Under the pieces are notes generated by a model that was given only the letters and a program-made list of their open reading frames with translations, did not search any database and was not told the origin of the DNA. DNA of 44,026 bases from a virus. Positions 2,967 through 44,026 of this stretch are shown one piece after another. Numbering within the stretch: position 1 is the stretch's first letter; each line of letters starts with the position of its first letter. The position numbers and the translations under genes were made by a program. The stretch is from the IMG/VR virus record IMGVR_UViG_3300037466_003019; one strand, written 5' to 3'.

Positions 2967-2993
2967 CCGGAGGGGGCGCGGGGGAGGTGCTGC

Positions 2994-4130: not shown

Positions 4131-4479
4131 GCGGCCTACGGCGTTCGAGGAGCAGCTGCTGGCCAGCGTGGAGCTGGCCCAACCGCGTAGCGGCAAGGAG
4201 CTGTGGCTCCTGCTCGCCCAGCGCATCGGCCTGGCCGACCTGATGGCCGTGCTTGACGAGTTCGGCGATGGCCAGGTGTGGGTACCGAGCCGCACCGGCC
4301 TGATGCAAGAGCTCTGGGTGCAGACGCGCTACGCGGAAATACAGCGGCTGCGCGCGGAGGAGGGGCTCAGCTGCCGCGAGGTGGCCGAGCGGATGAAGGT
4401 CAGCCCGGCCACGGTGATCCGGGCGGTTCGCTCGCAGTATGGAAGCGAAACACCCCCGCGTGGGAAACCGGGCGTATGA
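4102..4479 (+). CDS. Mor-family-like transcriptional activator (HTH)
   Basis: LMAVLDEFGDGQVWVPSRTG...YAEIQRLRAEEGLSCREVAERMKVSPATVIRAV resembles the Mu Mor/C signature (fGG..iYiP followed by a C-terminal HTH). Confidence 0.55.
   Translation: MDPAFSRPGERPTAFEEQLLASVELAQPRSGKELWLLLAQRIGLADLMAVLDEFGDGQVWVPSRTGLMQELWVQTRYAEIQRLRAEEGLSCREVAERMKVSPATVIRAVRSQYGSETPPRGKPGV
4425..4457 (+). promoter_or_regulatory. Conserved late-promoter-like motif, copy A (ggttcgctcgCAGTATGGAagcgaaacaccccc)
   Basis: One of three near-identical ~30-bp elements. CAGTAT starts 41 nt upstream of the terS-like ATG. Confidence 0.45.
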
Positions 4480-5237: not shown

Positions 5238-5545
5238 TGGGGTGGGCGCTCGCCCTGGCGGCCATCGCCATCGCCTTCGCGGTGGCAGAGTGTCGCCGCG
5301 AGCGCGCTGCGCGCCGCCAGCTGGCCGCGCTGCAGGCGGTGGTGGCCCAACAGCAGCGCAGCCTGCACCGCCTGGTGAAGGACAACGTGCTGCTCGACCA
5401 CTGGTGCGGGCGCTTCCGCGACCTGTACATCGCCACCGTGGCGCAGATCGACCCGGCCTATGCCGCCGAGCTGCGCGCGAAGTGGGCGCAGGTGCAGGCG
5501 CCCAGCGCCGTGGCGCGCCTGCTGGAGCGCGTGCGCCATGGCTAA
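5237..5545 (+). CDS. Small membrane-anchored hypothetical protein
   Basis: TGATG overlap with the upstream gene. Hydrophobic N-terminus MGWALALAAIAIAFAVA followed by a helical region. Confidence 0.5.
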   Translation: MGWALALAAIAIAFAVAECRRERAARRQLAALQAVVAQQQRSLHRLVKDNVLLDHWCGRFRDLYIATVAQIDPAYAAELRAKWAQVQAPSAVARLLERVRHG

Positions 5546-10422: not shown

Positions 10423-10424
10423 CT

Positions 10425-10457
10425 GTTTCGCCCACAGTATGGAGGCGTAACGCAAGG
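10425..10457 (+). promoter_or_regulatory. Conserved late-promoter-like motif, copy B (gtttcgcccaCAGTATGGAggcgtaacgcaagg)
   Basis: Lies in the portal/head intergenic gap. 25 of 28 nt identical to copy C. Confidence 0.45.
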
Positions 10458-16606: not shown

Positions 16607-17013
16607 CCAACGCGCAAGGCAAGGAGGAGCGGCTGTGGGATGTGGACGCGCTCTACCCGGACACCGACCTGCCGGCGTACTGCAAGCAATGCCGGCTGAC
16701 TGGCGGGTGCGGCACCCAATGCCCGCGCCCGCAGGTGCTGCCGGAGTGCCGGCCGGCGCTGGCCGCGTACGACCTGTGCGAGACGCAATGGCGTACGGGC
16801 TTCGGCTGCGTCACGGGGTTCGACTACAGCGCGTGCATCGCCACGCTGGCGCTCTACCTGCCGCGCTGGAAGGCCAGCGCGCCGCCGGGCGACCCGATCC
16901 ACGCCATGGAGGTGCCCGACCTGCTGGATGACCTGCGCACGATCGAGGAGGCCCTGCTCACCGCCTGGGCCGAAGTAGCCGAGCAGAAACGCACCGCGAG
17001 CCCTGACCCGTGA
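16133..17013 (+). CDS. Tail assembly chaperone frameshift product (gpGT-like, -1 slip at 16555-16561)
   Basis: The -1 frame reads ...GARKKLLAW...LWDVDALYPD...CETQWRTGFGCVTGFDYSACIATLALYL...TIEEALLTAW (DUF1799/gpT-like). It ends in a GTGA overlap with the tape-measure start. Confidence 0.6.
16555..16561 (+). other. -1 programmed frameshift slippery heptamer A_AAA_AAC
   Basis: Zero-frame codons are gga aaa aac. A -1 shift enters the frame that stays open to 17013. Confidence 0.6.
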
Positions 17014-20000
17014 TCACCGAGAACACCCTGCGCGTAAAGCTGGAAGTCGCCGGCGATGGCCAGATGAAGGCCGCGCTGCTCGACAACGCCGGTGCGCTCG
17101 ACACGCTGGAGAAGTCGCAGGAGGCGGTGACCGAAGCGGCCGGCGCGATGGCCGATGCGCAGAAGCAGGCGACCGCCGCCACCGAGGCCGCGGGCGAAAC
17201 CGCGGAGGAGGCGGCCGCCCGCATCCGCGCCATGGTACAGGCCTCTCGCGAGCGCGCCGAGACCGAGCGCGCCGCCATGGAGGCCACCCAGCGCAGCGCG
17301 CAGACCACCGCCAGCGCCACCGTGGGCCTGGACCGCCTGGTGCAGGCCCAGAACCGCGCCATGTCCGCCACCACGCGCAGGGTGCAGGAGGAGCAGCGCG
17401 CCGCGCAGTCGGCCGCCCAGGTTGCGAGCATCGGCCAGCAGCGGCAGGAGCTGGAAAAGCTGGTCGGCCAGATCGACCCGACCGTCGCGGCGCTGCACCG
17501 GCTGGACGTGCAGCAGCAGCAGCTCAACGATTTCCACAAGGCCGGCCTGCTCGGCACCGACGACTACAAGCGTTTCAGTAGCGCGATCGACGACAGCCGT
17601 ACCCGCATCGCGGCGGCCGGCGAGGCGATGCACAGCTTCAGCCTCAACAATGCGAACGCGCGGCGCGAGCTGGGTTACATCGTCAAGGACCTCGCCACCG
17701 GGCAATTCGGCCGTGCGCAGCAGAGTTTCCTGACCTTGGCCAACGCCAGCGGCCTGGTGCAGCTGGCGTTTAGCGGCGTGGGCGCCGTGCTCGGCGCCAC
17801 CGTGGCCGGTCTAGGACTGTTCGCCGTCGAGGCGGGCAAGGGCGTCGCGCAGGAACTCGCGCTGGACCGGGCCATCATCGCCACCGGCGAAAGCGCGGGC
17901 GTGACCACCGGCCAGGTACACGCCATGGCGTCCGCCATTGGCCGCGAGGGCGCTGCGGCCATGCAGCTGCTGGTCGAATCCGGGCGGGTAGGCGGCGAGC
18001 GGTTGCAGGAGGCCGGGCAGGCGGCGGTGGACATGGCCCAGGTGACGGGGCGCAGCCTGGCGTCCGCGGCCGCGGCGATCATCCAGCTGCAGGACGACCC
18101 GGTGCGGGCCGTGCAGGAGCTGGACAAGCAACTGCATTTCCTCACCGCCACCGAGTACGAGAACATCCGCGCGCTGCAGGAGATGGGCGACACGTCCGCC
18201 GCCGCGGCGATCGCGCAGACCGCGCTGGCGCAGGACGTGGCCGCGAAGGCGGCCGAGCAGCGCGAACACCTGACCCTGTTGGGGCGCGCCTGGTACGAGG
18301 TGCGCGACGCGATCGACGCCGCAGCGGAAGCCGCCAAGCGCTACGGACGCGAGGCCGTATACGGCAGCACCAACACGGACGACCTGGCCGAGGCGAACCG
18401 CCAGCTGGACGCCATCCGCCGGCGCTCGCCCCAGTTGGGTGGGCTCTCCGATGCGCAGCTGCTCGCCGCTGCCCGCACGCCGGGCGATCGCAACCATGCC
18501 CTGCTAGCCGGCGACCTTGGCACCATCCAGATGGCGGTGTCGGCCAAGCAACGCAGTGCGTCCGGCGCCTGGTTCGAGGGGGTGTTGGCCAGCACCGAGC
18601 AGCAGCGGGTGCAAGCCAACGGGATGCTCAAGGACGACGATGCGTTCTTCGACAACCTGCTCAAGCAGGCCAAGAGCGATCAAGCGAAGGCGAAGGAAAT
18701 CGCGGCGATCAACGCCCGCACCCAGCAGGACATCGCCGCCGCGCCCAACCGGCGGGCGGAGTTCGAGCAGCGCCAGAAAGAGGCCCTGGCGGCGGTGGAG
18801 AAGAAGTACACCGACCGCGGCGCCGCTGGCGTGGATCGCGCCTCGCTGCAGGCCGACGTGGACGCCTACCGGCAGGCCCAAAAACAAATCGACGATATCT
18901 TCGCCAACAGCAACCGCGCGCTGGGGGGCGAGCTGCGCGCCGGCCTGATCGACGAGCAGGACTACTACCAGCAGCGCATCAAGCTGATCAACGACCACGC
19001 CGCGCAGCTCGACGCCTCGCTGGCCAAGGAGGCCGAGGCCCTGCGCCAGCACAAGGCCTCCGGTGCCGATCAGATCCGCCTGGAGCAGCAGCTGCGCGAC
19101 GTGGAGGCCAAGCGCGCCCAGGTGGAGCAGGATGCCGCGGCGGCGCGCAAGGAGGCCGACAACGACCACCTGACCGCACTGCGGAAGATGGACGAGCTGA
19201 ACCAGCGCATCGCACTGGAGCTTGCCACGTACCAGCGGTCGCGTGAACAGGCGGTGGGGCGCGACATCGCTGGCATTGGCCACGGTACCGACTACGCGCA
19301 GCAGAGCCAGATCCTGGACCAGTTGCGCACGCAGGCCGATGCGCGGCGCGACGAGCTGACCCGCGCCGCCCAAAAGGACGGCACGCTGGGCACGGACAAG
19401 TATCTGGACGGCCTGCGGCAGATCGACGAGTGGGAGCAGCAGCAGGTCCAGCGCGAGGCTGGCTACTGGAAACAGCGCAAGGAAGCCATGGGCGAATGGC
19501 GCAACGGCGCCCGCGCCGCGTTGGAGGATTTCAAAAGCGCCGCCGAGGATGTGGCCGGTTCGGTACGTGAAGGCTTTGGCGGGATGTTCCGCGACATGGA
19601 GGACGATGCCGTCCAGTGGGCGGTCGGCAACCACGTCAGCCTGAAGAACGTGGAAAAGGATTTCGAGGTCATGCTCGCTCGCATGGCCATTCGCGCCGCC
19701 GAAGCGGAGGCCGCCAGCGCGCTGCTGGGATGGATTGGTCGCGGTGGCTCGGGCTTCACGTCGCTGGGTGGCTCGGCGGCTGACTACAGCAGCATCGGCA
19801 GCGACGGCAGCTTCGGCGGCGGCTTCAACCTGGCCACCGCCGGCCATGCCGAGGGTGGCCGCATCACGGGCCCGGGCACCGGTACCAGCGACAGCATCCT
19901 CGCTCGCCTGTCCAACGGCGAGAACGTGATGACGGCAAAGGCCACCAACTACTACGGCCAGCGATTCATGGACGACGTGAACGCCATGCGCCTGCCGCGC

Positions 20001-20261
20001 TTCGCCCAGGGTGGTCCGGTCGGCAGTGGCTCCATGCCCTTGGCCGCCGCGGGCGCCGCGGGCGGCACCGTCGTGAACATCTACGGCGCCGATCAGGACA
20101 CCCGCGTGCAGCAGCGCGAGGGAGGCGACGGCACCCGGTACATCGAGGTGTTCCTCAACGCCGCCGCGCAGGACGTGGCGCGGGGTGGGCGTCTCGGCCA
20201 GGCGATCAGCTCGGTCTACGGCGTGCGGCGGCAGGGCCGCAGCTATGGAGGCTCGAACTGA
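17010..20261 (+). CDS. Tape measure protein
   Basis: 1083 aa, with long Ala/Gln/Glu/Arg coiled-coil regions, in the canonical position. Confidence 0.9.
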   Translation: MITENTLRVKLEVAGDGQMKAALLDNAGALDTLEKSQEAVTEAAGAMADAQKQATAATEAAGETAEEAAARIRAMVQASRERAETERAAMEATQRSAQTTASATVGLDRLVQAQNRAMSATTRRVQEEQRAAQSAAQVASIGQQRQELEKLVGQIDPTVAALHRLDVQQQQLNDFHKAGLLGTDDYKRFSSAIDDSRTRIAAAGEAMHSFSLNNANARRELGYIVKDLATGQFGRAQQSFLTLANASGLVQLAFSGVGAVLGATVAGLGLFAVEAGKGVAQELALDRAIIATGESAGVTTGQVHAMASAIGREGAAAMQLLVESGRVGGERLQEAGQAAVDMAQVTGRSLASAAAAIIQLQDDPVRAVQELDKQLHFLTATEYENIRALQEMGDTSAAAAIAQTALAQDVAAKAAEQREHLTLLGRAWYEVRDAIDAAAEAAKRYGREAVYGSTNTDDLAEANRQLDAIRRRSPQLGGLSDAQLLAAARTPGDRNHALLAGDLGTIQMAVSAKQRSASGAWFEGVLASTEQQRVQANGMLKDDDAFFDNLLKQAKSDQAKAKEIAAINARTQQDIAAAPNRRAEFEQRQKEALAAVEKKYTDRGAAGVDRASLQADVDAYRQAQKQIDDIFANSNRALGGELRAGLIDEQDYYQQRIKLINDHAAQLDASLAKEAEALRQHKASGADQIRLEQQLRDVEAKRAQVEQDAAAARKEADNDHLTALRKMDELNQRIALELATYQRSREQAVGRDIAGIGHGTDYAQQSQILDQLRTQADARRDELTRAAQKDGTLGTDKYLDGLRQIDEWEQQQVQREAGYWKQRKEAMGEWRNGARAALEDFKSAAEDVAGSVREGFGGMFRDMEDDAVQWAVGNHVSLKNVEKDFEVMLARMAIRAAEAEAASALLGWIGRGGSGFTSLGGSAADYSSIGSDGSFGGGFNLATAGHAEGGRITGPGTGTSDSILARLSNGENVMTAKATNYYGQRFMDDVNAMRLPRFAQGGPVGSGSMPLAAAGAAGGTVVNIYGADQDTRVQQREGGDGTRYIEVFLNAAAQDVARGGRLGQAISSVYGVRRQGRSYGGSN

Positions 20262-20263
20262 CC

Positions 20264-20623
20264 ATGAGCAACCCGACCTGGCCCAGCACGCTGCCGCCAC
20301 CGGTCGCTGATAACAGCGCCGGCTACCAGGCCGTGAGCAACGCCGTACGCAGCAATACCGAGGCGGGCGTCGCCAAGGTGCGCCGCCGTTTCACGGCGGT
20401 GGCCACGCCGTTCAACTGCAACCTCAAGCTCACGCAGGCGCAGTACGCCACGCTGATCACTTTCTACGAGACAACCCTGCTCGACGTGCTGCCGTTCGAC
20501 TGGACCGACTGGCGCACCGGGGTCACCGCCAGCTACCGCTTCGTGCAGCGGCCGGGCGGCACGTTTATCCAGGGCTCGATCAACCGCTGGCTGGTGAACC
20601 TGCAACTGGAGAAGCTGCCGTGA
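20264..20623 (+). CDS. Minor tail protein (lambda gpM-like position)
   Basis: 119 aa, first gene after the tape measure. Confidence 0.5.
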   Translation: MSNPTWPSTLPPPVADNSAGYQAVSNAVRSNTEAGVAKVRRRFTAVATPFNCNLKLTQAQYATLITFYETTLLDVLPFDWTDWRTGVTASYRFVQRPGGTFIQGSINRWLVNLQLEKLP

Positions 20624-21093
20624 GGACGATGAGCCTCAACGCCATGCGCGCCATGTTCGCCCAGGAGACGGGCGAGGTGTTTCTGGTGTGCCTGACCATC
20701 ACGCACCCGGACATCACCACGCAGCGGCTGGTGAACAACACCCAGCCGGTGGTGCGGGCGGCGGGCACCTACCAGCCATACCCCATGCAACTGAAGCTGC
20801 CCGACGAGCGCGATGACCAACTGCCGCAGGTCGACATCGTGATCGACAACGTGGACCGCGCCGTGCTCGAGCAGATCCGCACGATCAAGGGCGTGCCGCA
20901 GGTGACCATGGAGGTGATCCTGGCCAGCAGCCCCGATACCGTGGAGGCCGGCCCGTTCGACTTTTCGCTCAAGACGGCGAGCTACGACGTGCTGGCGATC
21001 ACCGGCACGCTGGGCTACGAGGACGACATCCTCAACCAGACCGTGCCGGCCACCGAGTACACGCCGACGAACTCGCCGGGGCTGTTCGAGTGA
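20620..21093 (+). CDS. Minor tail protein (gpL-like, DUF1833-like)
   Basis: EVFLVCLTITHPD...QLPQVDIVIDNVDRAVLEQI pattern. ATGA-coupled. Confidence 0.55.
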   Translation: MRTMSLNAMRAMFAQETGEVFLVCLTITHPDITTQRLVNNTQPVVRAAGTYQPYPMQLKLPDERDDQLPQVDIVIDNVDRAVLEQIRTIKGVPQVTMEVILASSPDTVEAGPFDFSLKTASYDVLAITGTLGYEDDILNQTVPATEYTPTNSPGLFE

Positions 21094-21500
21094 ACGGCGC
21101 CATCCCCGACTGGGCGGCGCCCTACATCGGCCTTCCCTACGTGGACAAGGGCCGCACGCGCGAGGGCGTGGATTGCTGGGGCCTGGTGCGCCTGGTGCTG
21201 GCCGATGTGTTCCACGTGAACCTGCCTGACTACAGCGGCGCCTACCGGGATGGGGACGACTGGGGCGGCATCGCGCACGCCGTGCGCGCTGGCCTGGCCG
21301 AAGGCCCCTGGGTGAAGACCCAGCAGCCGCGTGCGGGTGACCTGCTCATCCTGAAGATCGCCGACCGCCCATGGCATTGCGGGGTGATGCTGAGCTCCAC
21401 CCGCTTCCTGCACGCCAAGCCGGGGGACTCGGTAGTGCATGAGCCGCTGGATACACCACGCTGGTCCAACCGGATCGAGGGGATCTACCGCCATGGCTGA
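21090..21500 (+). CDS. NlpC/P60-family tail tip protein (gpK-like)
   Basis: GVDCWGLVRLVL supplies the catalytic Cys and ...PWHCGVML the His. 136 aa. Confidence 0.75.
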   Translation: MNGAIPDWAAPYIGLPYVDKGRTREGVDCWGLVRLVLADVFHVNLPDYSGAYRDGDDWGGIAHAVRAGLAEGPWVKTQQPRAGDLLILKIADRPWHCGVMLSSTRFLHAKPGDSVVHEPLDTPRWSNRIEGIYRHG

Positions 21501-24342
21501 CGGCAGCACCGGCCTGGTCTCGCTGGTGGCGAGGCCGCACCCGTTCCAGCCCGACACCTACTACGCCGAGGCCGTTGCGGGGCAGACCATCGCCGAACTG
21601 CTGGGGCCGGGCGCGCGGCACAGCCTGCGCGTGGAGGTGGGAGGCGTCGAGGTGCCGGCGCAGGTGTGGCACCGCGTGAAGCCCAAGGCGGGGCAGCAGC
21701 TCACCGTCACCGCCTTTCCCCAGGGCGGTGGGAACAACAACAAGCTGCTCAAGATCGTGGTGGTGATCGTCGCCTTTGCATACCTCTGGTACACGGGGTT
21801 CACCGATTGGCACGGCGCCGGGCAGATCCTGGCCTACGGCTTCACCGCGGTGAACCTGCTGGTGCCCCCGCCGCAGCCCAAGCTACCGAACGGCGCCGAC
21901 CCGTTCGACCCGCTGCAATCGCTCACCGGCACGCAGAACCGCGCCGCGGTCTACAGCCCGATTCCATTCGTGATCGGCACGGTGCGCTTCTACCCCACCC
22001 ACGCCGCGCTGCCGTACACCGAGATCAGCGGCGCCGATCAGTACCTGCGCATGCTGCTCGACCTCGGGCCAGGCACCCTGGACGTCACCGACATCACCAT
22101 CGGCGAAACGGACATCGCTTCCTATGACGATGTCGAGTGGGAGATCAGCACCAACCCCACGCTGTTCGCCAATGACATCTTCGAGCTGCAGGTAGGCACC
22201 AGCCTGAATACCGCCGGCAGCAGCGACCTGCGCGCCGGGCAATCCAGCAGCTCGGAAATGTCGCTGGACCTTCAGTTTCCCACCGGCTTGTTCGGCGTCG
22301 ACAAGAAAGGCAACGACGTGGTGGGCCACGTCGGCGTGAGCATCCAGTACCGCCTGGTGGGCTCCTCCACGTGGAACAGTGCAGCGAGCGCACCGGGCCT
22401 GTCGCTGTCCTCCAGCGCGATCGCTGCCGCTGGTGGCAATTTCACCGTGACCGGCAGCGCCCACAAGGCGTTGCGCGTGGGCGTGCGCTGGACGGTGCCG
22501 GTGGGGCAGTACGAGGTGCAGGTCACCCGCAACACCACCAGTTGGGACAACACCACGTCCGCCAACTATTCCGACATGGTATGGACGGTGCTGCGCAGCA
22601 TCAGCAGCGCGAAGCCGAGCACTACGGGCAACAACTATCTCGCCATCCGCATCCGCGCCACCGATCAGCTCAACCAGGTGGTGAGCACCGTGAGCGTGCT
22701 GGCGAGCCAGCGTATCCGCACGTGGGACCGCAGCACCGGCACCTGGACCTACAACGTCGCCACGGCCAATAACGCCTGGGTCTACCACTGGCTGCTGACC
22801 AATGCACCCAGCCAGGCTGTTGCGCGGCCGGTGGCCGAGACCCGCGTCGACATCGACGCCATTGCCGATTGGGCCGACGACTGCACGGCCATGGGGTACA
22901 CGTACAACCAGCTGGAGCAGAGCGGCCGCACCCTGTTCGACCTGCTCAAGGATGTGCTGGCCAGCGGCCGGGCCACCTTTGGCATGCGCAACGGCAAGTA
23001 CAGCTGCGTGCGCGACGTGGCGCAGACCGTGCCCGTGCAGCTGTTCACGCCGGCCAACAGCTGGGACTTCCGCGGCGAGCGGGCGTATTTCGACCCGCCG
23101 CATGCGCTGCGCTGCCAGTTCATCAACCCGGAAGCGAACAACCAGCAGGACGAGCGCATCGTCTACGCCGCGGGCTACGACGCCTCCAACGCCACGCGCT
23201 TCGAGCCGATGGACCTGCGCATGTGTACGGACCCCGGCCCGGTGTGGCGCCTGGGCACCTACCACCTCGAGGCGGCGGACAAGCGGCAGAACACCTATTC
23301 CTGGATGGCCGACGTGGAGAACCTGGTGTGCGAGCGCGGCGACCTGGTGCACGTGGCCCATGACGTGGTGGAGTGGGGCGCCGGCAGCGGCCGTATCAAG
23401 AGCATTGCCGCCGATCGGCTGAGCGTGACGCTGGATGGCGCGGCGGCGTTGAAGTCGGGCGCGCTCTACGCCATGCAGGTGCGCGCGGACAATGCTGTGC
23501 AGCAGGTGATCAACACCACCACGACCGGCAACGGGGACGTAAGCGTGTTCGCGTTCGCCAGCGCGTTGCCGAGCAATGTGCAGGTGGGCGACCTGTGCGT
23601 GATCGGCGATCGCACGCTGGTAACCACGCCGTTGATCGTGCAGATGATCCAGCCGCAGGGCGACCTGACCGCGCGCCTCACCGGCGTGGACGCTGCGCCC
23701 ACCGTGCCGGCCGCCGGCACCGGCACGCCGCCGCCGTTCGTCAGCGCCATCAACGGCAAACCCTGGTGCGCAGCCCCGGACCTGCCTGACGTGACCATCC
23801 GCATCGGCGACAGCCCGCCGGACGACGCCGGCGTGATCCATGCCCAGCCCGGCGTGTACGGCTCGCCCAAGCCGGGCATCCACCGCATCCCCATCCACGG
23901 CCCGGGATGCGTGCTGGTCGACAGCGAGGTAATCGCGGTGGTGGACGGCCAAGACGTGACCAAGCGCGCCGGTGACGTGCAGGTGGGTGACACGCTGCGC
24001 CTGTTCGACCCGGTGACGCTTGCGCCCACCACTGGCGTGGTGAGCTACAGCGAGCCGACGCCGCAGCCCTGCGTGGTGATCACCACGCGCAGCGGCAAGC
24101 GCCTGCGCTGCTCCACAAGCGCGCCGATCCCCACCCAGCACGGCGGCCTGCGCACCGCGCCCAACGTAGCCGGGCAGGCCGTTGCCGTGCGCGTGGATGG
24201 CGTGGCGCAGTGGGAGGAGGTGGCCTCGGTGCGCGTGCTGGGTCGCCAGATGGTGCAGCACATCACCTGCGAAAACGGCTGCTTCTGGGCTGACGACGTG
24301 GGCCACCACAACCTCAAGCCCATTGCACGAGGGGACGACTGA
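21493..24342 (+). CDS. Tail tip/host-specificity protein (gpI-like N-terminus fused to a gpJ-like body) with C-terminal Hint domain
   Basis: 949 aa. The N-terminus ...PQGGGNNNKLLKIVVVIVAFAYLWY is gpI-like with a TM segment. ...LTGTQNRAAVYSPIPFVIGTVRFYP is J-like. The C-terminus is intein-like. Confidence 0.75.
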   Translation: MADGSTGLVSLVARPHPFQPDTYYAEAVAGQTIAELLGPGARHSLRVEVGGVEVPAQVWHRVKPKAGQQLTVTAFPQGGGNNNKLLKIVVVIVAFAYLWYTGFTDWHGAGQILAYGFTAVNLLVPPPQPKLPNGADPFDPLQSLTGTQNRAAVYSPIPFVIGTVRFYPTHAALPYTEISGADQYLRMLLDLGPGTLDVTDITIGETDIASYDDVEWEISTNPTLFANDIFELQVGTSLNTAGSSDLRAGQSSSSEMSLDLQFPTGLFGVDKKGNDVVGHVGVSIQYRLVGSSTWNSAASAPGLSLSSSAIAAAGGNFTVTGSAHKALRVGVRWTVPVGQYEVQVTRNTTSWDNTTSANYSDMVWTVLRSISSAKPSTTGNNYLAIRIRATDQLNQVVSTVSVLASQRIRTWDRSTGTWTYNVATANNAWVYHWLLTNAPSQAVARPVAETRVDIDAIADWADDCTAMGYTYNQLEQSGRTLFDLLKDVLASGRATFGMRNGKYSCVRDVAQTVPVQLFTPANSWDFRGERAYFDPPHALRCQFINPEANNQQDERIVYAAGYDASNATRFEPMDLRMCTDPGPVWRLGTYHLEAADKRQNTYSWMADVENLVCERGDLVHVAHDVVEWGAGSGRIKSIAADRLSVTLDGAAALKSGALYAMQVRADNAVQQVINTTTTGNGDVSVFAFASALPSNVQVGDLCVIGDRTLVTTPLIVQMIQPQGDLTARLTGVDAAPTVPAAGTGTPPPFVSAINGKPWCAAPDLPDVTIRIGDSPPDDAGVIHAQPGVYGSPKPGIHRIPIHGPGCVLVDSEVIAVVDGQDVTKRAGDVQVGDTLRLFDPVTLAPTTGVVSYSEPTPQPCVVITTRSGKRLRCSTSAPIPTQHGGLRTAPNVAGQAVAVRVDGVAQWEEVASVRVLGRQMVQHITCENGCFWADDVGHHNLKPIARGDD
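23908..24339 (+). other. Hint (intein-like) domain at the C-terminus of the J-like protein
   Basis: Begins with Cys (GPG-CVLVDSEVIAV). Contains AGDVQVGDTLRL. Ends VQHITCENGCFWADDVGHHN-LKPIARGDD, which resembles intein blocks F/G with terminal HN. Confidence 0.6.
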
Positions 24343-26921
24343 TGGCCACGTCCGCCGCCGTCAAGCTGGAGGTCCGCTGGCGCGAAGTCGGCACCGAGGC
24401 ATGGAGCAACATCGCCGAGGCGCCGGTGATGAACGAGCTCTACATCGAGGGCCTCACGCGCGGCAAGCAGTACGAGGTGGAATGGCGCGGCGTGTCGGCT
24501 TGCGGTGCGAAAAGCGCGTGGGGCAGCACGCTCCACACGCCGCCGGGCGTAGCGGTGCCGCTGGCGATCTCCACGCTGACCGCCGCATCGCTCGCCGATG
24601 GCGTGCACCTCACCTGGGCGACCGATGGCATCCAGCCGGCCGGCATCGAGTATTCGATCGAGCGCAGCGCCTCGTCCACCACCGGCTTCGTGGAACGGGC
24701 GCGCGTGCGCGCCACCGCCTTCACGGACCCGGAAACGAGCGGCACCACCTACTACTACCGCGTGCGCGGGGTGAATTTCTCCGAGGTGTACGGGCCCTAC
24801 AGCTCGGTGGTGAGCAGCAACGGCGTGAACGTCGGGGCGATCGGCAACACGGCCAACCAGGCCAACGCCAACGTGCCGACGGTCATCAACCCGCAGTTCA
24901 AGAACGGCACCACCGGCTGGACGTTCGACAACGCCGCGGGCTTCTACCAGGAGCAGGGCGCGAACAGCCCGGACAGCGCGTGCAACACCTACCTGGTGCG
25001 CCAGGGGCAGGCCGGTGGCGCGACCACGGCAGCGCGCAACCTCGGATACGTGAGCGTGGTTCCCGGGCAGACCGTCACGGCGCTGTGCTGTCTGAAGTCG
25101 CTCAGCGCCAATGCCGGCGCTTATGCAGGCGTCCGCATCTCCTGGCGTGACCTCAACCATTCTGAGCTATCGGTGACGCATGCGAGTGTCACCTGCGGCC
25201 CCGGCGGCACCTATCTGCAATGCGTGAGCAAGGCCGCTGGGCAGGCGCCAGCAAACGCGCAATTCGCCCATCTCGAAATCGAGTATCTCCTCCACACGAG
25301 CGGGTACCTCAACGCCACCAGTTGCAACCTTACGGTGCAGCCGGCGAGCCTCGGCGAGGTGCCCGACGGCGGTGGCCGCTACGGCGTGCACCAGGTCGAC
25401 GGCAATGGCCTGGCCATCGTGGACTTCTCGCAAGCGGGCCACGTCAACAAGAACCTCGACTACATCAACGACGGCGGCTCGTTCGCAAAGATCCGCAAAG
25501 GCCAGTTAAGCAATGGCATCCTGAGCCTGCTCCAGAATGGCCGCAATTGCATCTTCAACCCGACGTTCACCCAGAACGCTGCCGGTATAGGGAACGGTGC
25601 GTTCGTGACGAGCGGCACCGTCATCGACGGCTGGACGGTTTCGGGAGGCTCCGCGGTTGCGGGCTGCATCGCCTATTTCGGGCAGTTGTACTCGCGCGTC
25701 CTCGCCGGGTATGTCGTTGCAGCGGGTAGCGCCGGCAGTCCGGTTGCCTCTTATGGCGGCATCGCATCCTCTACCCCTTTTGCCGTTATCCCAAACAGCA
25801 TCTACGCATTCTCGGTTGGCAAGTTCTCTGGCGCGTCCATGCCGATCGGTTCGTTGCCTGCGGGCGTGAGTGTCTATCACCGCGTCTACATCAGTTTCAA
25901 GGATTCAACGGGAGCGGTGATCCGCAACGACATCTTCGATGACGGCCTTTACAACACCCGCGCCCTCGTTACCGCGGCAGGAACCGTCCCATCGAACGCC
26001 ACACAAGCAGTCATCTTCCTCTACATTTACTTTCTCAACACGGGGTCCGCCTGGACGCTACCGGCTGGCTCCTATTTCGACGCGGATATTTCTTCGATTG
26101 AATATGTTCAAGCGTCCGACTTGTCCTACCAGGTGACCGGCACCCTTAGCACGCAGCGCAACCTGCCGCTGGTCACGTGGGGCAACTACGGCGGCGGCTG
26201 GAGCGGCCTGTCGATCCCCTACACCACGACCACCACCAGCTGCACCTTCAACGCGAGCGCCGGCACGTACATCGGCGGCGGCGACTCGATCGCCTACAAC
26301 GCTAGCAGCGTGACCGTCAGCGGCAGCGCCGGTGCCGTCATCACCTACTACCTGTTCTACGACGATCCGGGCATGACGGGTGGCAGCAAGACGCTGCAAG
26401 CCACGACGAACCAGATCACCAGCCTCAACGCCAACGGCCGCGTGCTGGTGGCGACGGTGAAGGTCACCTTCCCGACCAGTGGCACGGGTGGCGGGACGGG
26501 GGGCGGCAGCTGCCCGCAGGTCGACCAGCCAGTCATCTGCATCCGCCAAGGCGACTCGGACCCGGAGACGATCCGTGCCGGCGACGTGCGTGTGGGCGAC
26601 CGCCTGCTGCTTTCCAGCGGCCGCTGGGGCCTGGTGTCGTTCTCCGAGCGCCGGCAGCAGCCCGGCGTGCGCGTGGTCGGCGCGGATGGCTCCAGCATCA
26701 CCTGCAGCGCCAGCGCGCCGCTGGAGACGGCGGAGGGTCCCTGCGTGGTGGCGCCCTACACCCGCGGCTTGGTGCTGCGCCATCGCACGCACGGCGTCAT
26801 GCGCGTGGCCGAGGTGTTCGACGTGGGCGACATCTGGGTCCAGCACATCACCTGCGAGAACGATTGCTTCTGGGTAGGCGACTACTCCCACCACAACCGC
26901 AAACCGGACCCCATCACATGA
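24342..26921 (+). CDS. Tail fibre protein with N-terminal FN3 repeats, a lower-GC central receptor-binding-like region and a C-terminal Hint domain
   Basis: 859 aa. FN3-like segments: ...YEVEWRGVSACG... and ...YYYRVRGVNFSEVYGPYS. The region around 25150-26150 is visibly lower in GC. The C-terminus is homologous to that of the J-like protein. Confidence 0.75.
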   Translation: MATSAAVKLEVRWREVGTEAWSNIAEAPVMNELYIEGLTRGKQYEVEWRGVSACGAKSAWGSTLHTPPGVAVPLAISTLTAASLADGVHLTWATDGIQPAGIEYSIERSASSTTGFVERARVRATAFTDPETSGTTYYYRVRGVNFSEVYGPYSSVVSSNGVNVGAIGNTANQANANVPTVINPQFKNGTTGWTFDNAAGFYQEQGANSPDSACNTYLVRQGQAGGATTAARNLGYVSVVPGQTVTALCCLKSLSANAGAYAGVRISWRDLNHSELSVTHASVTCGPGGTYLQCVSKAAGQAPANAQFAHLEIEYLLHTSGYLNATSCNLTVQPASLGEVPDGGGRYGVHQVDGNGLAIVDFSQAGHVNKNLDYINDGGSFAKIRKGQLSNGILSLLQNGRNCIFNPTFTQNAAGIGNGAFVTSGTVIDGWTVSGGSAVAGCIAYFGQLYSRVLAGYVVAAGSAGSPVASYGGIASSTPFAVIPNSIYAFSVGKFSGASMPIGSLPAGVSVYHRVYISFKDSTGAVIRNDIFDDGLYNTRALVTAAGTVPSNATQAVIFLYIYFLNTGSAWTLPAGSYFDADISSIEYVQASDLSYQVTGTLSTQRNLPLVTWGNYGGGWSGLSIPYTTTTTSCTFNASAGTYIGGGDSIAYNASSVTVSGSAGAVITYYLFYDDPGMTGGSKTLQATTNQITSLNANGRVLVATVKVTFPTSGTGGGTGGGSCPQVDQPVICIRQGDSDPETIRAGDVRVGDRLLLSSGRWGLVSFSERRQQPGVRVVGADGSSITCSASAPLETAEGPCVVAPYTRGLVLRHRTHGVMRVAEVFDVGDIWVQHITCENDCFWVGDYSHHNRKPDPIT
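26511..26918 (+). other. Hint (intein-like) domain at the C-terminus of the tail fibre
   Basis: A GGGTGGGS linker precedes CPQVDQPVICI. Contains AGDVRVGDRLLL and ITCSASAP. Ends VQHITCENDCFWVGDYSHHN-RKPDPIT. Confidence 0.6.
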
Positions 26922-28336: not shown

Positions 28337-28391
28337 GCCGGCAGGGTAGGCCGCGGGCGTCTCACCTTGAGCGAACAGCCGCGCCCGGCGC

Positions 28392-28424
28392 GTTTCGCCC
28401 GCAGTATGGAGGCGCAACACCCTG
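28392..28424 (+). promoter_or_regulatory. Conserved late-promoter-like motif, copy C (gtttcgcccgCAGTATGGAggcgcaacaccctg)
   Basis: CAGTAT starts 42 nt upstream of the endolysin ATG. Confidence 0.45.
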
Positions 28425-34309: not shown

Positions 34310-34677
34310 TGCAGTCCCTGAACTCTTGCCGGGGTAACCGGACACAACTCGCCCAAGCCGTGGCCCTGCGCTTCGGCGTTGACCCGAACGCTGCGTATCC
34401 AGTTTCCGCATTTATCGTTCAACTGCTTGAGCAGCAGGGTGACGACGGAGCTAATGGCATCGACCAGGCCATCGCAGGAACGATGGGCCCTGACGATTAC
34501 TACGACCTGCTCGAAGGGTTCCAGATTGGGCACCGCCAGATCCGTACATGGGTGCGGGAAGGCCGCGCCGGCGAACCAGTCGCGCTGACTACGCGGGGGC
34601 GGGAGCTTGCGCGTCGGATCAACGATGAGCTCGTAATTTTCACCGGCGCAGATTCGACGATGGAGGCCACCCCGTGA
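34309..34677 (+). CDS. Hypothetical protein
   Basis: 122 aa, TGATG-coupled, lower GC. Confidence 0.45.
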   Translation: MQSLNSCRGNRTQLAQAVALRFGVDPNAAYPVSAFIVQLLEQQGDDGANGIDQAIAGTMGPDDYYDLLEGFQIGHRQIRTWVREGRAGEPVALTTRGRELARRINDELVIFTGADSTMEATP

Positions 34678-35636
34678 CCTCCAACGTCATCACCATCGCC
34701 GGCCACAGCGTTACGCCCGTTACGCTGACCCAGGCCATCGCGCACTTCCTGCAGCGCAAGCGCCTGCGCAACGCCGCGCTGAACACCTTGGTGGCCTATG
34801 CGGGCGACCTGCAGGACTTCGCCGACTTCGCCGCCACGCAGGGCGTGGAGCTGGTCGGCCTGGTGGGCGAGCGGCTGGTCGGCCGCTGGCTGGACCGGCT
34901 CGGCCACCGCGGCCTGTCGCCGCGCAGCCAGGCACGCAAGCTGACCGTGCTGCGGCAGCTGGTGCTGCACAGCATTCGCGAGGGCTGGCTGAGCCACGAC
35001 CCGACCAAAGATGACCGTGTGCACTTCGTGCAATTGCCGAAGATCGCACCGGAGCTGTCGCCGCTGCTCACCATGTTGGATGCACTGCCCACCCGCACGC
35101 CGCAGGACCTGCGCGACCGCGCCATGCTGCGCCTGACGCTGGATGCAGCCTTGCGCGTGGGCGACCTGACCGGCCTGGACGTGCCAAACCCGGTGCGGCC
35201 GCCCTTCAACACGGTGGACCTCGGCCGCCGTGAGGTTCGCACGCTGGGCAAGGGCCGCAAGCCGGCCGTGGTGCCCATCAACCAGCGCAGCGCCGAATGG
35301 CTGGGCGACTGGCTGCGCGTGCGTGACCGCATGGCCCGCGAGGGCGAGTGCGCGATCTTCGTGAGCAATCGCGGCACGCGCATCACCCGTCAGCAGATCT
35401 ACAACCGCGTGCGCCAGCTGGGCGCGCAGCACGGTCTGCCGGACCTGCACCCGCACCTGCTGCGCCACCGCCGCGTAGGTGACGTGGTGGAGCAGCTGGG
35501 CCTGGAGGCCGGCCAGCACCTGGCGCGCCACAAGAGCAAGTCCACCACCGCCGCCGTGTACGGCGCCCAGGCCGCCGCCGTGGTGCGCCACGTGCTACGC
35601 GAGCGAGCGGACCTGGATGCAAGGAGGGTGGGCTGA
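34674..35636 (+). CDS. Tyrosine recombinase (XerD-like), third of three
   Basis: RDRAMLRLTLDAALRVGDLTGL, TLGKGRKPAVVPI, HPHLLRHRRVGDVV, ARHKSKSTTAAVY. Confidence 0.8.
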   Translation: MTSNVITIAGHSVTPVTLTQAIAHFLQRKRLRNAALNTLVAYAGDLQDFADFAATQGVELVGLVGERLVGRWLDRLGHRGLSPRSQARKLTVLRQLVLHSIREGWLSHDPTKDDRVHFVQLPKIAPELSPLLTMLDALPTRTPQDLRDRAMLRLTLDAALRVGDLTGLDVPNPVRPPFNTVDLGRREVRTLGKGRKPAVVPINQRSAEWLGDWLRVRDRMAREGECAIFVSNRGTRITRQQIYNRVRQLGAQHGLPDLHPHLLRHRRVGDVVEQLGLEAGQHLARHKSKSTTAAVYGAQAAAVVRHVLRERADLDARRVG

Positions 35637-38858: not shown

Positions 38859-39383
38859 ATGCAACAGCCCAACATCCATATCGACCGCATGACCGTCCAC
38901 GTGCACGGCCCTGAGCCCGAAAGCAGCGGGCTGCTGGTCGCGCCGCTGATCCAGGCGGTCTTCGGAGACGTCAAAAAGGCCTCGGGCAAGAGCGAGGCCG
39001 AACGCTTCGAGCTGCGCCCGGACGGCACCACGGTCGACCATAAGACCGGCCTGCAGTGGGCCACCGAGGAAAGCCCCAAGCAGCTGAATTTCGAGGAGGC
39101 CGAGAAGCACTGCGCCGCGCTGCGTCTCGGCGGCTTCGACGACTGGCGCCTGCCCGACCTGGAGGAGCTGGAGTCCATCCGCGACCTCGGCCGCCACAAC
39201 CCCTGCATCGATCCGAAGTTCTTCAAGAGCAACGCCAACTGGGTGTGGTCGCGCACGCCCACGGCGTGGTCTTCGGGCTGCGCGTGGGTCGTCTACTTCT
39301 ACTACGGCAACGTGAACTACGACGACCGGTACGGCAGGGCGTTCGTCCGGGCTGTGCGTCGCGTGTCGCCGGCCGGTCAGTGA
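38859..39383 (+). CDS. DGR target protein 1 (DUF1566 / C-type-lectin-fold)
   Basis: DHKTGLQWATEE...EAEKHCAALRLGGFDDWRLPDLEELESI...WVWSRTPTAWSSGCAW-VVYFYYGNVNYDDRYG-RAFVRAVRRV. AAAGGA RBS. The longest ORF starts at 38772. Confidence 0.9.
   Translation: MQQPNIHIDRMTVHVHGPEPESSGLLVAPLIQAVFGDVKKASGKSEAERFELRPDGTTVDHKTGLQWATEESPKQLNFEEAEKHCAALRLGGFDDWRLPDLEELESIRDLGRHNPCIDPKFFKSNANWVWSRTPTAWSSGCAWVVYFYYGNVNYDDRYGRAFVRAVRRVSPAGQ
39263..39377 (+). repeat. DGR variable repeat VR1
   Basis: 115 nt aligned to the TR, with 10 mismatches, all at TR adenines. The variable window is 39288-39336. Confidence 0.95.
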
Positions 39384-39425
39384 TTGGCCTTTTGGCCCAT
39401 CCCTCCATTCACAAGGAAACGCTCC

Positions 39426-39854
39426 ATGGAAACCATGATCAAGATCGGTGCGCAGGGCGAGCAGCTGCCGGCCGAGGCCACCCAGTGGGACGCCGTGCTG
39501 CTGCCGCAGCTCGGCCTGATGTTCAGCGCCACCGACACGGGCGAGGGGGAACTGACCTTCAAGCAGGCCGAGGCGGCCTGCGCCAGCCTCACGCTCGCCA
39601 GCTTCAGCGATTGGCGGATGCCGGAACGGCAGGAGCTGGAGGCGATTCTGGACCTGACTCGCTACGAGCCGGCCATCGACCCGGCGTTCTTCCGCGACAC
39701 CAAGAGCGACTGGTACTGGACCCGCACGCCTACGGCGTGGTCTTCGGGCTGCGCGTGGATCGTCAGCTTCGACGACGGCGGCGTGGGCAACGGCACCCGG
39801 AACCTCAGGGCGTTCGTCCGGGCTGTGCGTCGCGTGTCGCCGGCCGGTCAGTGA
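39426..39854 (+). CDS. DGR target protein 2 (DUF1566 / C-type-lectin-fold)
   Basis: METMIKIG...ASFSDWRMPERQELEAIL...WYWTRTPTAWSSGCAW-IVSFDDGGVGNGTRNL-RAFVRAVRRV. AAGGA lies 8 nt upstream. Confidence 0.9.
   Translation: METMIKIGAQGEQLPAEATQWDAVLLPQLGLMFSATDTGEGELTFKQAEAACASLTLASFSDWRMPERQELEAILDLTRYEPAIDPAFFRDTKSDWYWTRTPTAWSSGCAWIVSFDDGGVGNGTRNLRAFVRAVRRVSPAGQ
39734..39848 (+). repeat. DGR variable repeat VR2
   Basis: 12 mismatches to the TR, all at TR adenines. Confidence 0.95.
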
Positions 39855-39896
39855 TTGGCCTTTTGGCCCATCCCTCCATTCACAAGGAAACGCTCC

Positions 39897-40325
39897 ATGG
39901 AAACCATGATCAAGATCGGTGCGCAGGGCGAGCAGCTGCCGGCCGAGGCCACCCAGTGGGACGCCGTGCTGCTGCCGCAGCTCGGCCTGATGTTCAGCGC
40001 CACCGACACGGGCGAGGGGGAACTGACCTTCAAGCAGGCCGAGGCGGCCTGCGCCAGCCTCACGCTCGCCAGCTTCAGCGATTGGCGGATGCCGGAACGG
40101 CAGGAGCTGGAGGCGATTCTGGACCTGACTCGCTACGAGCCGGCCATCGACCCGGCGTTCTTCCGCGACACCAAGAGCGACTGGTACTGGACCCGCACGC
40201 CTACGGCGTGGTCTTCGGGCTGCGCGTGGTTCGTCGGCTTCCTCGACGGCTACGTGGGCAACAACGCCCGACACGGCAGGGCGTTCGTCCGGGCTGTGCG
40301 TCGCGTGTCGCCGGCCGGTCAGTGA
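39897..40325 (+). CDS. DGR target protein 3 (duplicate of target 2 apart from the VR)
   Basis: Identical to target 2 except for the VR residues FVGFLDGYVGNNARHG. Confidence 0.9.
   Translation: METMIKIGAQGEQLPAEATQWDAVLLPQLGLMFSATDTGEGELTFKQAEAACASLTLASFSDWRMPERQELEAILDLTRYEPAIDPAFFRDTKSDWYWTRTPTAWSSGCAWFVGFLDGYVGNNARHGRAFVRAVRRVSPAGQ
40205..40319 (+). repeat. DGR variable repeat VR3
   Basis: 15 mismatches to the TR. 14 are at TR adenines. The other is a synonymous G->A (cgg->cga) at 40271. Confidence 0.95.
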
Positions 40326-40351
40326 TCGGCTTCTCGGCCTGAGCTAACACC

Positions 40352-40786
40352 ATGACCTTCACCCTCCCACCCGCCGTGCGCCTGGCCGAAGGCTTGGCTC
40401 GGGACATCGAGCAGGCCGTCGCGCGGTTCCAGCGCGCCTACCGCTATACGTTCGGCGCGGATCTTCGCGCCCGGGCGTGGGCGGTGTTGCGCACCGCCCA
40501 CCGGGCGGCGCGCGACCAGGCGCGCCGGGGCCATTGGCTGACGCAACTGGTGTGGGAGGTGGACGAGCTCAAGTTGAGCCTGCAGTTGGGCAAGCAGTTG
40601 CACGCCTTCGTCAGCTTCGCGCAGTTCGAGGCGCTGGCGCGGGCGGCCGCGCAGCTGGGCCGCCAGGTGGGCGGCTGGCACAAGCAGCAACACCCTCAAG
40701 GCCAGAGTGGTCCGGCGCGAGCGCCGGGCCAGCGTGCCATGACACTGAGTTCCCGTGCCGCCTCGAACCGTGAGGCCAATCGATGA
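40352..40786 (+). CDS. avd: DGR accessory variability determinant (Avd, four-helix-bundle type)
   Basis: 144 aa, helical and Arg/Ala-rich (...AVARFQRAYRYTFGADLRARAW...ELKLSLQLGKQLHAF...FEALARAAAQLGRQVGGW), in the canonical position between VR and TR. Confidence 0.8.
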   Translation: MTFTLPPAVRLAEGLARDIEQAVARFQRAYRYTFGADLRARAWAVLRTAHRAARDQARRGHWLTQLVWEVDELKLSLQLGKQLHAFVSFAQFEALARAAAQLGRQVGGWHKQQHPQGQSGPARAPGQRAMTLSSRAASNREANR

Positions 40787-42141
40787 CGACGCCGCGCTAC
40801 TCCACCATGGAATGCGCGGCCGGGTCGCAAGTGCACGGGCGGGCGTGGTCTTCGGGCTGCGCGTGGATCGTCAACTTCAACAACGGCAACGTGAACAACA
40901 ACAACCGGAACAACAGGGCGTTCGTCCGGGCTGTGCGTCGCGTGTCGCCGGCCGGTGAGTGTCGGGGTGAGGTGAGCCTGCGGGCGCTATACGAAGCATG
41001 GCGCGCCGCTCGCCGCAAGAAGCAACCCAGTGCCAACCAGCTAGCGTTCGAGCTGCGCTCGATCGACCGCCTGCTGGACCTGCAGGAACAACTCAACGCC
41101 GGCCGCTGGTCGCCGGCCCCCACCACGTGCTTCGTGGCCACGCGGCCCAAGGCGCGCGAGATCCATGCGCCGGACTTTGCCGACCGTGTGGTGCACCACT
41201 GGCTGGTGCCGCAGCTGGAGGCGATCTACGAGCCTGGTTTCATCCACGACAGCTACGCCAACCGCAAGGGCAAGGGCACGCACGCGGCGGTACGCCGCCT
41301 GCAACAGTTCGTGCGCCAGGTGCACAGCGGACAGGGCGGCGGCTGGTACCTGCAGCTGGACGTGCACAACTTCTTCAACTCGATCCACCGCGCGACGCTG
41401 TACGGCATGCTCAAGGCGCGTCTGTCCCGCGCCGGCTTGGGTGAAGTGCCGATGCGGGCCGTGCACGCGCTGCTGCGCCACCCGGTGCAACAACAAGGCG
41501 TCATCCACCGCGCCACGCCGGCAGAGCGGGCACTGGTGCCGCCGCACAAACGGCTGGAGAACGCACCGCCCGGGTGCGGCTTGCCGATCGGCAATCTGTC
41601 GTCGCAGTTCTTCGCCAACGTGTACCTGGATGCGCTGGACCAGTTCGTCAAGCACACGCTCAAGGCCAAGCGCTACCTACGCTACGTGGACGACTTCGTG
41701 CTGGTGCACCGCGACCGGGGCCAGCTCGAGCAATGGCACGCGGCGATCGAACGCTTCCTCGGGCAGACGCTTCGGCTCGGCCTGAAGGCCGACCAGCGCC
41801 TGCGCCCGCTGTCCGCCGGCATCGACTTCCTGGGCTACGTGGTCTACCCCACGCACACCCGCGTGCGGCCGCGCGTGCTGCGCCACGCGACGGACAGCCT
41901 GCAGCGCTGGCAGCGGGCGCACCGCGCGGGCGGCGGCTACAGGGGCACGCCGGAGGACTTCCAGCGCCTCGATTCCATCTGGGCCAGCTACCAGGGCCAC
42001 TTCGCGCACGCGAACAGCTGGCGCCTGCAGCAGCGCCTGCTGCGGCGGCGCCCCTGGCTCGCCGCGCTCGCCAACCCACGGCGCCGCTTCCATCACCGCC
42101 TGAGCGGGCGGCGCCTCACTGTGAGGGTTTCACATCCATGA
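40783..42141 (+). CDS. DGR reverse transcriptase (ORF as tracked; the functional start may be GTG 40972, downstream of the TR)
   Basis: LPIGNLSSQFFANVYLD is the DGR-type motif and RYLRYVDDFVLVH carries YxDD at 41683-41694. The N-terminal core LRALYEAWRAARRKK...PKAREIHAPDFADRVVHHWL is also present. ATG 40783 overlaps the avd stop (ATGA), but the first ~60 codons are simply the TR read in frame. Confidence 0.92.
   Translation: MTTPRYSTMECAAGSQVHGRAWSSGCAWIVNFNNGNVNNNNRNNRAFVRAVRRVSPAGECRGEVSLRALYEAWRAARRKKQPSANQLAFELRSIDRLLDLQEQLNAGRWSPAPTTCFVATRPKAREIHAPDFADRVVHHWLVPQLEAIYEPGFIHDSYANRKGKGTHAAVRRLQQFVRQVHSGQGGGWYLQLDVHNFFNSIHRATLYGMLKARLSRAGLGEVPMRAVHALLRHPVQQQGVIHRATPAERALVPPHKRLENAPPGCGLPIGNLSSQFFANVYLDALDQFVKHTLKAKRYLRYVDDFVLVHRDRGQLEQWHAAIERFLGQTLRLGLKADQRLRPLSAGIDFLGYVVYPTHTRVRPRVLRHATDSLQRWQRAHRAGGGYRGTPEDFQRLDSIWASYQGHFAHANSWRLQQRLLRRRPWLAALANPRRRFHHRLSGRRLTVRVSHP
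40842..40956 (+). repeat. DGR template repeat (TR)
   Basis: 115 nt. The A-free flanks (25 nt at the 5' end, 41 nt at the 3' end) are identical to all three VRs. The central window 40867-40915 holds 22 adenines: 10 AAC codons plus one ATC and one AGG in the VR reading frame. Homology continues with one mismatch to about 40961. Confidence 0.95.
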
Positions 42142-43878: not shown

Positions 43879-44026
43879 GCCATGGCGCGGATGCTTCGCT
43901 ATGGCCGCCCGCAGGTGCTCAATGTCGGCACCCAGGTAGCACGCCGTGCTCTCCAGCGCACTGTGCCCGAGCATCTGCATGATGGCGGGCAGGGGACAGC
44001 CGTGGTGGAGCAGGGTGGTGGCCATG
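43783..44026 (-). CDS. int: Tyrosine integrase, C-terminal part (continuation of the 1-953 fragment; 43901-44026 duplicates 1-126)
   Basis: HLLRASMATTLLHHGCPLPAIMQMLGHSALESTACYLG gives H-x-x-R, H and the catalytic Y. The stop is at 43783. Confidence 0.85.
   Translation of the reverse strand, partial: MATTLLHHGCPLPAIMQMLGHSALESTACYLGADIEHLRAAIAKHPRHGSARPRDAPAPAGMAGATQPAGRVRKRAKPAQ
43901..44026. repeat. Terminal direct repeat, copy 2 (identical to 1-126)
   Basis: Same 126 nt as the window start. Confidence 0.97.

Follow-up and report, generated by a model that had tools for sequence, protein, structure and literature searches.

The locus lies on the plus strand of the window (the whole stretch of DNA analysed, 44,026 nt) and is a complete diversity-generating retroelement (DGR), composed of three Lcl_C/DUF1566 target genes, an avd-like gene, a template repeat (TR) and a reverse transcriptase (RT) in canonical order (Table 1). 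All three targets match the Lcl_C/DUF1566 family above the gathering score, and the variable repeat (VR) forms the last ~25 residues of each; by these profile matches, the products are predicted C-type-lectin-like proteins. Target gene 1 is a diverged paralog of the unit that follows it, with ~57% amino acid identity over 108 residues and 62% nucleotide identity in the body. A single base, C at 39260, sets the VR1 block apart from the two unit blocks, which carry T at the equivalent positions (39731 and 40202).

Table 1. Features of the retroelement cassette and its duplicated target units
Feature	Position	Strand	Details
Target gene 1, 174 aa, VR1 at 3' end	38859..39383	+	Pfam Lcl_C PF07603, E=2.9e-26
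VR1 block	39252..39383	+	TR-homologous 39263-39382; variable window 39288-39334; TRF array begins at 39252
Duplicated unit 1	39384..39854	+	Post-VR motif TTGGCCTTTTGG; RBS AAGGAAA; CDS 39426-39854 (142 aa, Lcl_C); VR2 variable window 39759-39805
Duplicated unit 2	39855..40325	+	Sequence as in unit 1; CDS 39897-40325 (142 aa, Lcl_C); VR3 variable window 40230-40276
Only inter-unit difference off the TR adenines	40271 (unit 1: 39800)	+	TR G, unit 1 G, unit 2 A; synonymous CGG>CGA; adjoins an A>C site
avd-like accessory gene, 144 aa	40352..40786	+	Sub-threshold Avd profile matches and position
Template repeat (TR)	40842..40961	+	Single TR for VR1, VR2 and VR3; a fourth repeat copy, more diverged
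Reverse transcriptase ORF, 452 aa as called	40783..42141	+	Pfam RVT_1, E=4.6e-15

The adenine-rich window of the TR (40867-40915, 49 nt) contains 22 adenines, mostly as AAC codons. Over ~120 nt, the differences between the TR and its VRs fall at TR adenines in 10 of 10 cases for VR1, 12 of 12 for VR2 and 14 of 15 for VR3 (36/37 in total), the one remaining change in VR3 being a G>A at 40271.

The avd-like ORF matches only Avd families among the profiles, in both cases below threshold: Pfam bAvd (E=6.6e-8, 33.4 bits, gathering score 40) and NCBIfam DivGenRetAVD (E=7e-9, 35.9 bits, cut-off 80). No PDB sequence matched it. Its position between target and TR and its size are canonical, and both are kept in relatives. 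The best match of the RT ORF among solved structures is 8ub7_A, a 328-aa reverse transcriptase (E=6.7e-38), which we take to be the bRT of BPP-1; a group II intron RT matches 23 orders of magnitude more weakly (E=3.7e-15). The similarity to solved RTs covers residues ~100-408, the Pfam RVT_1 match begins at residue 123, and the ORF contains the motif LPIGNLSSQFFANVYL as well as YVDD. Against NCBIfam, the RT ORF gave sub-threshold matches only.

As called, the RT ORF starts at an ATG that overlaps the avd stop codon (ATGA) and stays in frame through the whole TR (40783-40975), where the TR has GAGTGT in place of the CAGTGA stop of the VRs. The same read-through is seen in the two closest relatives, L061 (from 5806) and L014 (from 5803). 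Either the RT bears a TR-encoded N-terminal extension, or its true start is the in-frame GTG just past the TR.

The first and last 126 nt of the window (1-126 and 43901-44026) are identical, and the contig is thus circularly closed with a unique length of 43,900 nt. Given the 127-nt break points of another contig, described below, this terminal overlap is most likely an assembler k-mer overlap and not a biological terminal repeat. The window encodes a portal protein, a tape-measure protein, a J-type central tail fibre and integrases, has 69% G+C, and is a complete circular 43.9-kb genome of a temperate siphovirus-like phage. Its hosts are apparently of Rhodanobacteraceae type; relatives of the RT occur in prophages of Frateuria, Rhodanobacter, Dyella, Lysobacter and allied genera. 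In a BLASTN comparison of the cassette with GenBank phages, only RT matches of 130-225 nt at 71-80% identity were found, and the phage therefore has no close cultured relative there.

Several other features of the genome were recorded. The DGR targets are stand-alone Lcl_C proteins of 142-174 aa without an obvious signal peptide by eye, and their genes (38859-40325) adjoin RdgC and integrase genes in the early/lysogeny region, ~12 kb from the tail module (17010-26921). A ~40-nt motif (..GTTTCGCCCrCAGTATGGAGGCGyAAC) occurs three times, at 4412-4451, 10412-10451 and 28379-28418, with 65-80% identity; at least one copy sits just past a gene end (the portal ORF ends at 10422), and the motif may be a phage regulatory or terminator-like element. 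A 69-nt direct repeat with 80% identity (24252-24320 and 26837-26905) marks the 3' ends of two consecutive tail genes (21439-24342 and 24342-26921), which suggests a C-terminal module shared by these two large genes. Three genes are apparently of the tyrosine-recombinase type: 2853-4130, which has a PHROG integrase match; 34674-35636, assigned from a 48-nt repeat (family D4, 3530 and 35108) taken to encode a recombinase motif; and a minus-strand gene running from 43783 across the contig end, with a JGI Pfam Phage_integrase call in L001.

Two units identical outside the variable window

The first-pass annotation had described two perfect tandem units that diverge within the VR. Exact pairwise alignment of 39384-39854 with 39855-40325 gave 471 ungapped columns, of which 458 are identical and 13 are mismatched (columns 376, 382, 388, 389, 397, 398, 409, 410, 412, 417, 418, 421 and 422). 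All of the mismatches lie within 47 nt, namely unit columns 376-422 (39759-39805 and 40230-40276), and the two units are identical over the other 424 nt. In agreement with this alignment, TRF detected a single array in the whole window (39252-40330, period 471, 2.3 copies, score 1976), the extra 0.3 copy being the 3' end of the upstream paralogous target with VR1. Were 13 differences scattered at random over the 471 nt, the chance of finding every one in a given 47-nt stretch would be ~1e-13. Thus, substitutions do not occur outside the VR at a density similar to that inside (0/424 nt as against 13/47 nt), and the identity claimed for the flanks holds throughout.

Twelve of the 13 inter-unit differences are located at TR adenines, every one of them at codon position 1 or 2. 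Given 21 adenines in the 47 nt, the probability of at least 12 of 13 hitting an adenine is ~5e-4. The changes are nonsynonymous in 12 of 13 cases, and the translations of the two units differ at 8 of 156 residues, all between residues 126 and 141 of the 156-codon ORF. The first-pass annotation had counted 125 + 15 matching residues and identical antisense ORFs, both of which are correct, and had placed many of the VR differences at TR adenines, as was found. Its 49-nt variable window does confine the differences, but 49 nt is the length of the adenine-bearing window of the TR and the span that differs between the units is 47 nt. Its description of the two VRs as fully different was too strong: 13 sites differ, as compared to 22 TR adenine sites.

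A reading without any retroelement, in which diversifying selection acted on ordinary point mutations in the VRs, is scarcely credible. The excess of nonsynonymous changes is what such selection would leave, but selection would not account for the restriction to TR adenines, significant even within the variable window, or for the lack of any change in the remaining 424 nt. The same adenine-limited pattern is found in VR1 and in ~170 VRs of related loci.

The array itself was judged from assemblies. A 957-nt contig from JGI sample 3300037419 (L060) matches window positions 39632-40588 with 0 mismatches; it spans VR2, all of unit 2, VR3 and the first part of avd, and includes the exact unit-2 protein. 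Starting at 40103 and passing through the circle junction to 39461, a 43,259-nt contig from sample 3300037312 (Ga0395899_0000507) matches the window without a difference. One of its ends is placed precisely 127 nt ahead of 40230, where VR3 begins to vary, and the other precisely 127 nt past 39334, the last site to vary in VR1; between VR3 and avd the contig does not branch. A de Bruijn graph built with k=127 should take this shape for VR1-body-VR2-body-VR3, a true internal repeat with a third VR. The common k-mer of 127 was deduced from these 127-nt breaks and the 126-nt terminal overlap, and the supporting assemblies appear to belong to one JGI sample series, as their record identifiers are consecutive.

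The position of VR2 within the array is also informative. Towards its 3' end, 51 nt separate its last variable site from the base that parts the next unit (TTGGCC) from the avd side (TCGGCT); towards its 5' end, the unit-specific T at 39731 stands 28 nt ahead of the first site that varies. Single 127-mers or reads can therefore cover either junction of VR2.

An assembler could in principle have strung two VR variants of a population, each with one real unit, into a false tandem. The data come from short-read metagenome assembly, as the 126-nt terminal overlap indicates; the k-mer is shorter than the identical 424-nt body, which could be crossed only with repeat resolution; and Wu et al. 2018 (PMC5758913) doubted an eight-target array in Stenotrophomonas likewise. 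Nevertheless, both VR2 junctions are spanned by single 127-mers or reads, the second sample assembled VR2-unit-VR3-avd identically, and the 43,259-nt contig passes from VR3 into avd unbranched and breaks where a VR2 loop predicts, while a plain VR bubble would have branched on the avd side. We consider an artefact very unlikely, and the independent assemblies support the duplication as real.

Exact 41-mer scans with the unit body found no match in metagenome_contigs or viral_contigs, and a scan with the IMH region found none in metagenome_contigs; these collections evidently do not contain the JGI samples that hold the phage, and they yielded no additional VR or copy-number variants.

The 3' boundary of the repeats and the origin of the second unit

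At their 3' ends, the TR and the VRs are identical for 43 nt past the last TR adenine (anchor column 74), and they diverge at column 116 (40957) and from column 121 (40962) onwards. The asymmetry between VR (IMH) and TR (IMH*) is thus present at this end, where it is predicted to play a role in the direction of homing. The 49-nt flank and the stop codon are identical after all three VRs. Beyond them, the side leading into a next unit reads TTGGCC (TTGGCCTTTTGG) and the avd side reads TCGGCT (TCGGCTTCTCGG). Among the relatives, T[TC]GG[CT][CT] directly follows 82 of 174 VRs as compared to 0 of 83 TRs, the TRs continuing with a GAGTGTCAGGGTG-like sequence.

In a longer form, T(T/C)GGCC(Y)(Y)TTG, the motif stands right past the stop codon of many VR-bearing targets among the ~170 VRs of L002-L095. 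Its sites in the window are 39384-39399, 39855-39870 and 40326-40341; it opens each duplicated unit and is not a hairpin. Recipient repeats, on the IMH side, may be told apart from donors partly by this motif.

A GC-rich hairpin of the BPP-1 type after the VR was considered as a feature of the family and dropped. Folding of the 91 nt past each VR was not significant for a hairpin or cruciform (z = -0.83 and +1.23), and no such structure is conserved in relatives, where a hairpin of at least 4 bp follows 20 of 160 VRs, a lower share than for the TRs (18/76). To our knowledge, the post-VR hairpin is not universal among DGRs. A scan for sigma-70 promoters and terminators found none on the plus strand around the array and none separate for either unit, which is compatible with co-transcription of the units.

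To place the duplication among related cassettes, ~90 loci were fetched by RT similarity. Most have two or three VRs (range 1-4) matching one TR, with tandem small targets typically 390-650 nt apart. The bodies of these tandem targets are 56-75% identical, or 86% in one pair of L005, and none of the ~90 loci has an identical pair. Such pairs represent earlier duplications of a like kind. The nearest relative, L061, is a prophage in a Frateuria MAG whose RT is 90% identical at the amino acid level. Its order is RdgC, gene 1, one 142-aa 'METMIKIG' unit, avd and TR/RT, with the VR blocks 469 nt apart, and its unit body is 86.5% identical to that of the window, as compared to 100% between the two units of the window. 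The single unit of L061 indicates that the two-target cassette is ancestral and that the second unit is a lineage-specific gain.

The boundaries of the duplication can be placed. The repeat period of 471 nt equals the spacing of the VR1 and VR2 blocks. On its 5' side the middle block carries the unit-type T (39731), and on its 3' side it is followed by the sequence that stands after VR1 (TTGGCCTTTTGG...). Any exchange would thus lie between the equivalents of 39261 and 39384, inside the VR block, in agreement with the prediction for slippage or unequal homologous exchange between VR blocks. The claim that target number grows by tandem duplication mediated by the VR flanks is supported by these boundaries and by the single unit of L061.

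We suggest the following route. The ancestral cassette would have consisted of gene1(VR1), gene2(VR), avd, TR and RT. Repeated overwriting from one TR would keep the last ~130 nt of both targets near-identical at non-adenine positions; the VR blocks are indeed near-identical despite 62%-identical bodies, presumably because both were templated by the same TR. The VR blocks would thereby act as direct repeats 471 nt apart, between which unequal homologous exchange or a replication slip could generate the 471-nt head-to-tail duplication. The duplicated segment would bring with it the whole second-target gene, the RBS and post-VR motif that belong to it, and a full VR/IMH end. The copies would then have been set apart by mutagenic retrohoming, templated by the TR, before any ordinary substitution arose in the other 424 nt, and the outcome would be three independently diversifiable Lcl_C/DUF1566 proteins served by one TR and RT. 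Taken as a whole, VR-block duplication combined with adenine-directed homing is in our judgement a highly probable account of the target array.

A related phage, L014 (IMGVR_UViG_3300038393_003169, 4652-5806), has an RT that is 89% identical. In L014, avd directly adjoins a gene1-type target, no 'METMIKIG' unit is present, and a further target is found 1.6 kb upstream. A deletion reciprocal to the duplication, from the same exchange between VR blocks, could have produced this arrangement.

Order of events and age of the duplication

Two candidate explanations of VR2 were examined and set aside. VR2 is not a crossover chimera of the 5' part of VR3 and the 3' part of VR1, as it has unique bases at its first and last variable sites. 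Residual shared ancestry of VR2 and VR3 was likewise rejected: 5 of 9 co-mutated sites are the same, which is within the range of 0-6 seen between unrelated genomes. Since VR2 is non-chimeric and shares no excess of sites with VR3, at least one full adenine-mutagenic rewriting separates the two.

The first-pass annotation had proposed that mutagenic homing acted after the duplication. This is the simplest order, but it is not the only possible one, since an exchange between co-existing VR variants gives the same array with no need of later homing. In that case the VR of the second target would already have been polymorphic through homing in the phage or prophage population, and unequal recombination within the 49-nt 3' flank would then have joined two genomes. 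The identity of this flank and the stop codon after all three VRs provides a stretch long enough for homologous exchange. Furthermore, a crossover 3' of the variable window would have left VR2 whole, and VR2 does extend unbroken over all of its variable sites; the VRs are also static across assemblies. Such an event, however, requires a co-infection or a meeting of prophage and phage bearing different variants, of which none are on record, and it would still imply DGR activity within the same short time frame, with only the order of events changed. We regard this reversed order as a minority possibility, and homing after duplication as the preferred sequence.

The lack of flanking substitutions had also been read as a sign that the duplication is too recent to have acquired any. 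The 0/424 nt is confirmed, but zero divergence sets only a lower limit on age, because gene conversion could maintain identity. An older duplication could be kept identical in its bodies by gene conversion or repeated unequal exchange, while the 28%-diverged VR window would block conversion tracts or be re-diversified. Tandem repeats with a ~375-nt identical stretch are good substrates for recombination, and the VR blocks of diverged paralogs do stay identical at non-adenine positions while the bodies drift. On the other hand, the nearest relative has a single unit, no related locus has an identical pair, and a recent origin is the simplest explanation for complete identity on either side of the VR. 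An old duplication thus seems improbable, and we favor a recent one.

The statement that the DGR is or was recently active stands for its second part. Recent activity follows from adenine-site changes accompanied by no change in 424 nt of flank, and every reading of order and age requires that the DGR was active very recently. As for present activity, all assemblies in which VR1, VR2 or VR3 occurs show the same sequence for it, and the protein cluster at 90% identity has no versions other than those with VR2 and VR3, the unit-1 protein being listed on 2 contigs. With the same VRs in all assemblies and no further variants on record, there is no sign of ongoing diversification.

Comparison with known DGRs and implications

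Target expansion by duplication is already known in the literature, and the locus is not a new kind of system. Multi-target DGRs make up ~15% of catalogued elements, non-adenine differences between TR and VR occur in 23% of DGRs, and DUF1566 is an established target category, 'd' (Wu et al. 2018, PMC5758913). As in the window, the multi-target cassettes described earlier have one TR and RT serving several adjacent VR-bearing paralogs, gene duplication is their stated origin, and their VRs are diversified independently and at adenines only (Schillinger et al. 2012, PMC3521204; Wu et al. 2018, PMC5758913). Their paralogs are 41-72% identical, whereas one pair here is 100% identical outside the VR. 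The duplication in this phage has therefore been caught before divergence, with boundaries that can still be placed inside the VR blocks.

Another parallel is the eight-gene tandem target array of a Stenotrophomonas sp., which has only five unique VRs and whose assembly was doubted (Wu et al. 2018, PMC5758913). By its published description, this DGR resembles the present one in having tandem targets with repeated sequence; here, in contrast, each copy has a unique VR and the array was reproduced in a second assembly. Stenotrophomonas, Frateuria, Rhodanobacter, Dyella and Lysobacter all belong to the Xanthomonadales/Lysobacterales.

Other systems share single features with the window phage. The DGR of Legionella pneumophila likewise places a variable C-terminus in a DUF1566/Lcl_C domain (LdtA) and has an AAC-rich TR. 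LdtA is a surface lipoprotein encoded on a genomic island, whereas the proteins here are stand-alone, 142-174 aa long, and encoded in the early/lysogeny region of a phage and not in its tail module. Bordetella phage BPP-1 (mtd-avd-TR-brt) has the same order of target, avd, TR and RT, is also phage-borne, and shows adenine-only differences. Its one target is a tail-fibre receptor-binding protein, and a GC-rich hairpin follows its VR; the window phage, as compared to BPP-1, has three small targets outside the tail, lacks a significant hairpin and carries another conserved motif after the VR. Recent target duplication has been described in cyanobacteria and Thiohalocapsa, where, as here, target repertoires grow by recent duplication and recombination. 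Those duplications are dispersed, transposon-associated and accompanied by domain shuffling, unlike the simple tandem, VR-block-mediated event proposed here. What the locus adds is a zero-divergence case, a junction mapped to the VR blocks, and a phage with small non-tail targets.

The array serves as a natural internal clock, with zero background substitutions set against 12 adenine-site changes, and by this measure the DGR of an uncultivated environmental phage mutates its targets far faster than ordinary mutation does. Surveys have inferred target gain from diverged paralogs, 41-72% identical, without catching the moment of origin. The location of the junction at the VR blocks supports a simple route to multi-target DGRs, in which repeats homogenised by the TR act as substrates for recombination. 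In short-read assemblies with k=127, such arrays show as contigs that break exactly k bases from variable sites, and fresh target duplications are probably under-counted in metagenomic DGR catalogues.

More tentatively, homing from one TR, by keeping the 3' ends of all targets identical, might turn these ends into recombination hotspots of the DGR's own making, so that the number of targets in this phage family would expand and shrink quickly, like an 'accordion'. Repeated unequal exchange between VR blocks would then add whole target genes, as in the window, the 86% pair of L005 and the evenly spaced triple of L019, and would also remove them, each new copy being instantly re-diversified. We hold this view to be doubtful at present; were it true, the retroelement would be the driver of target gene number as well as of target sequence diversity.
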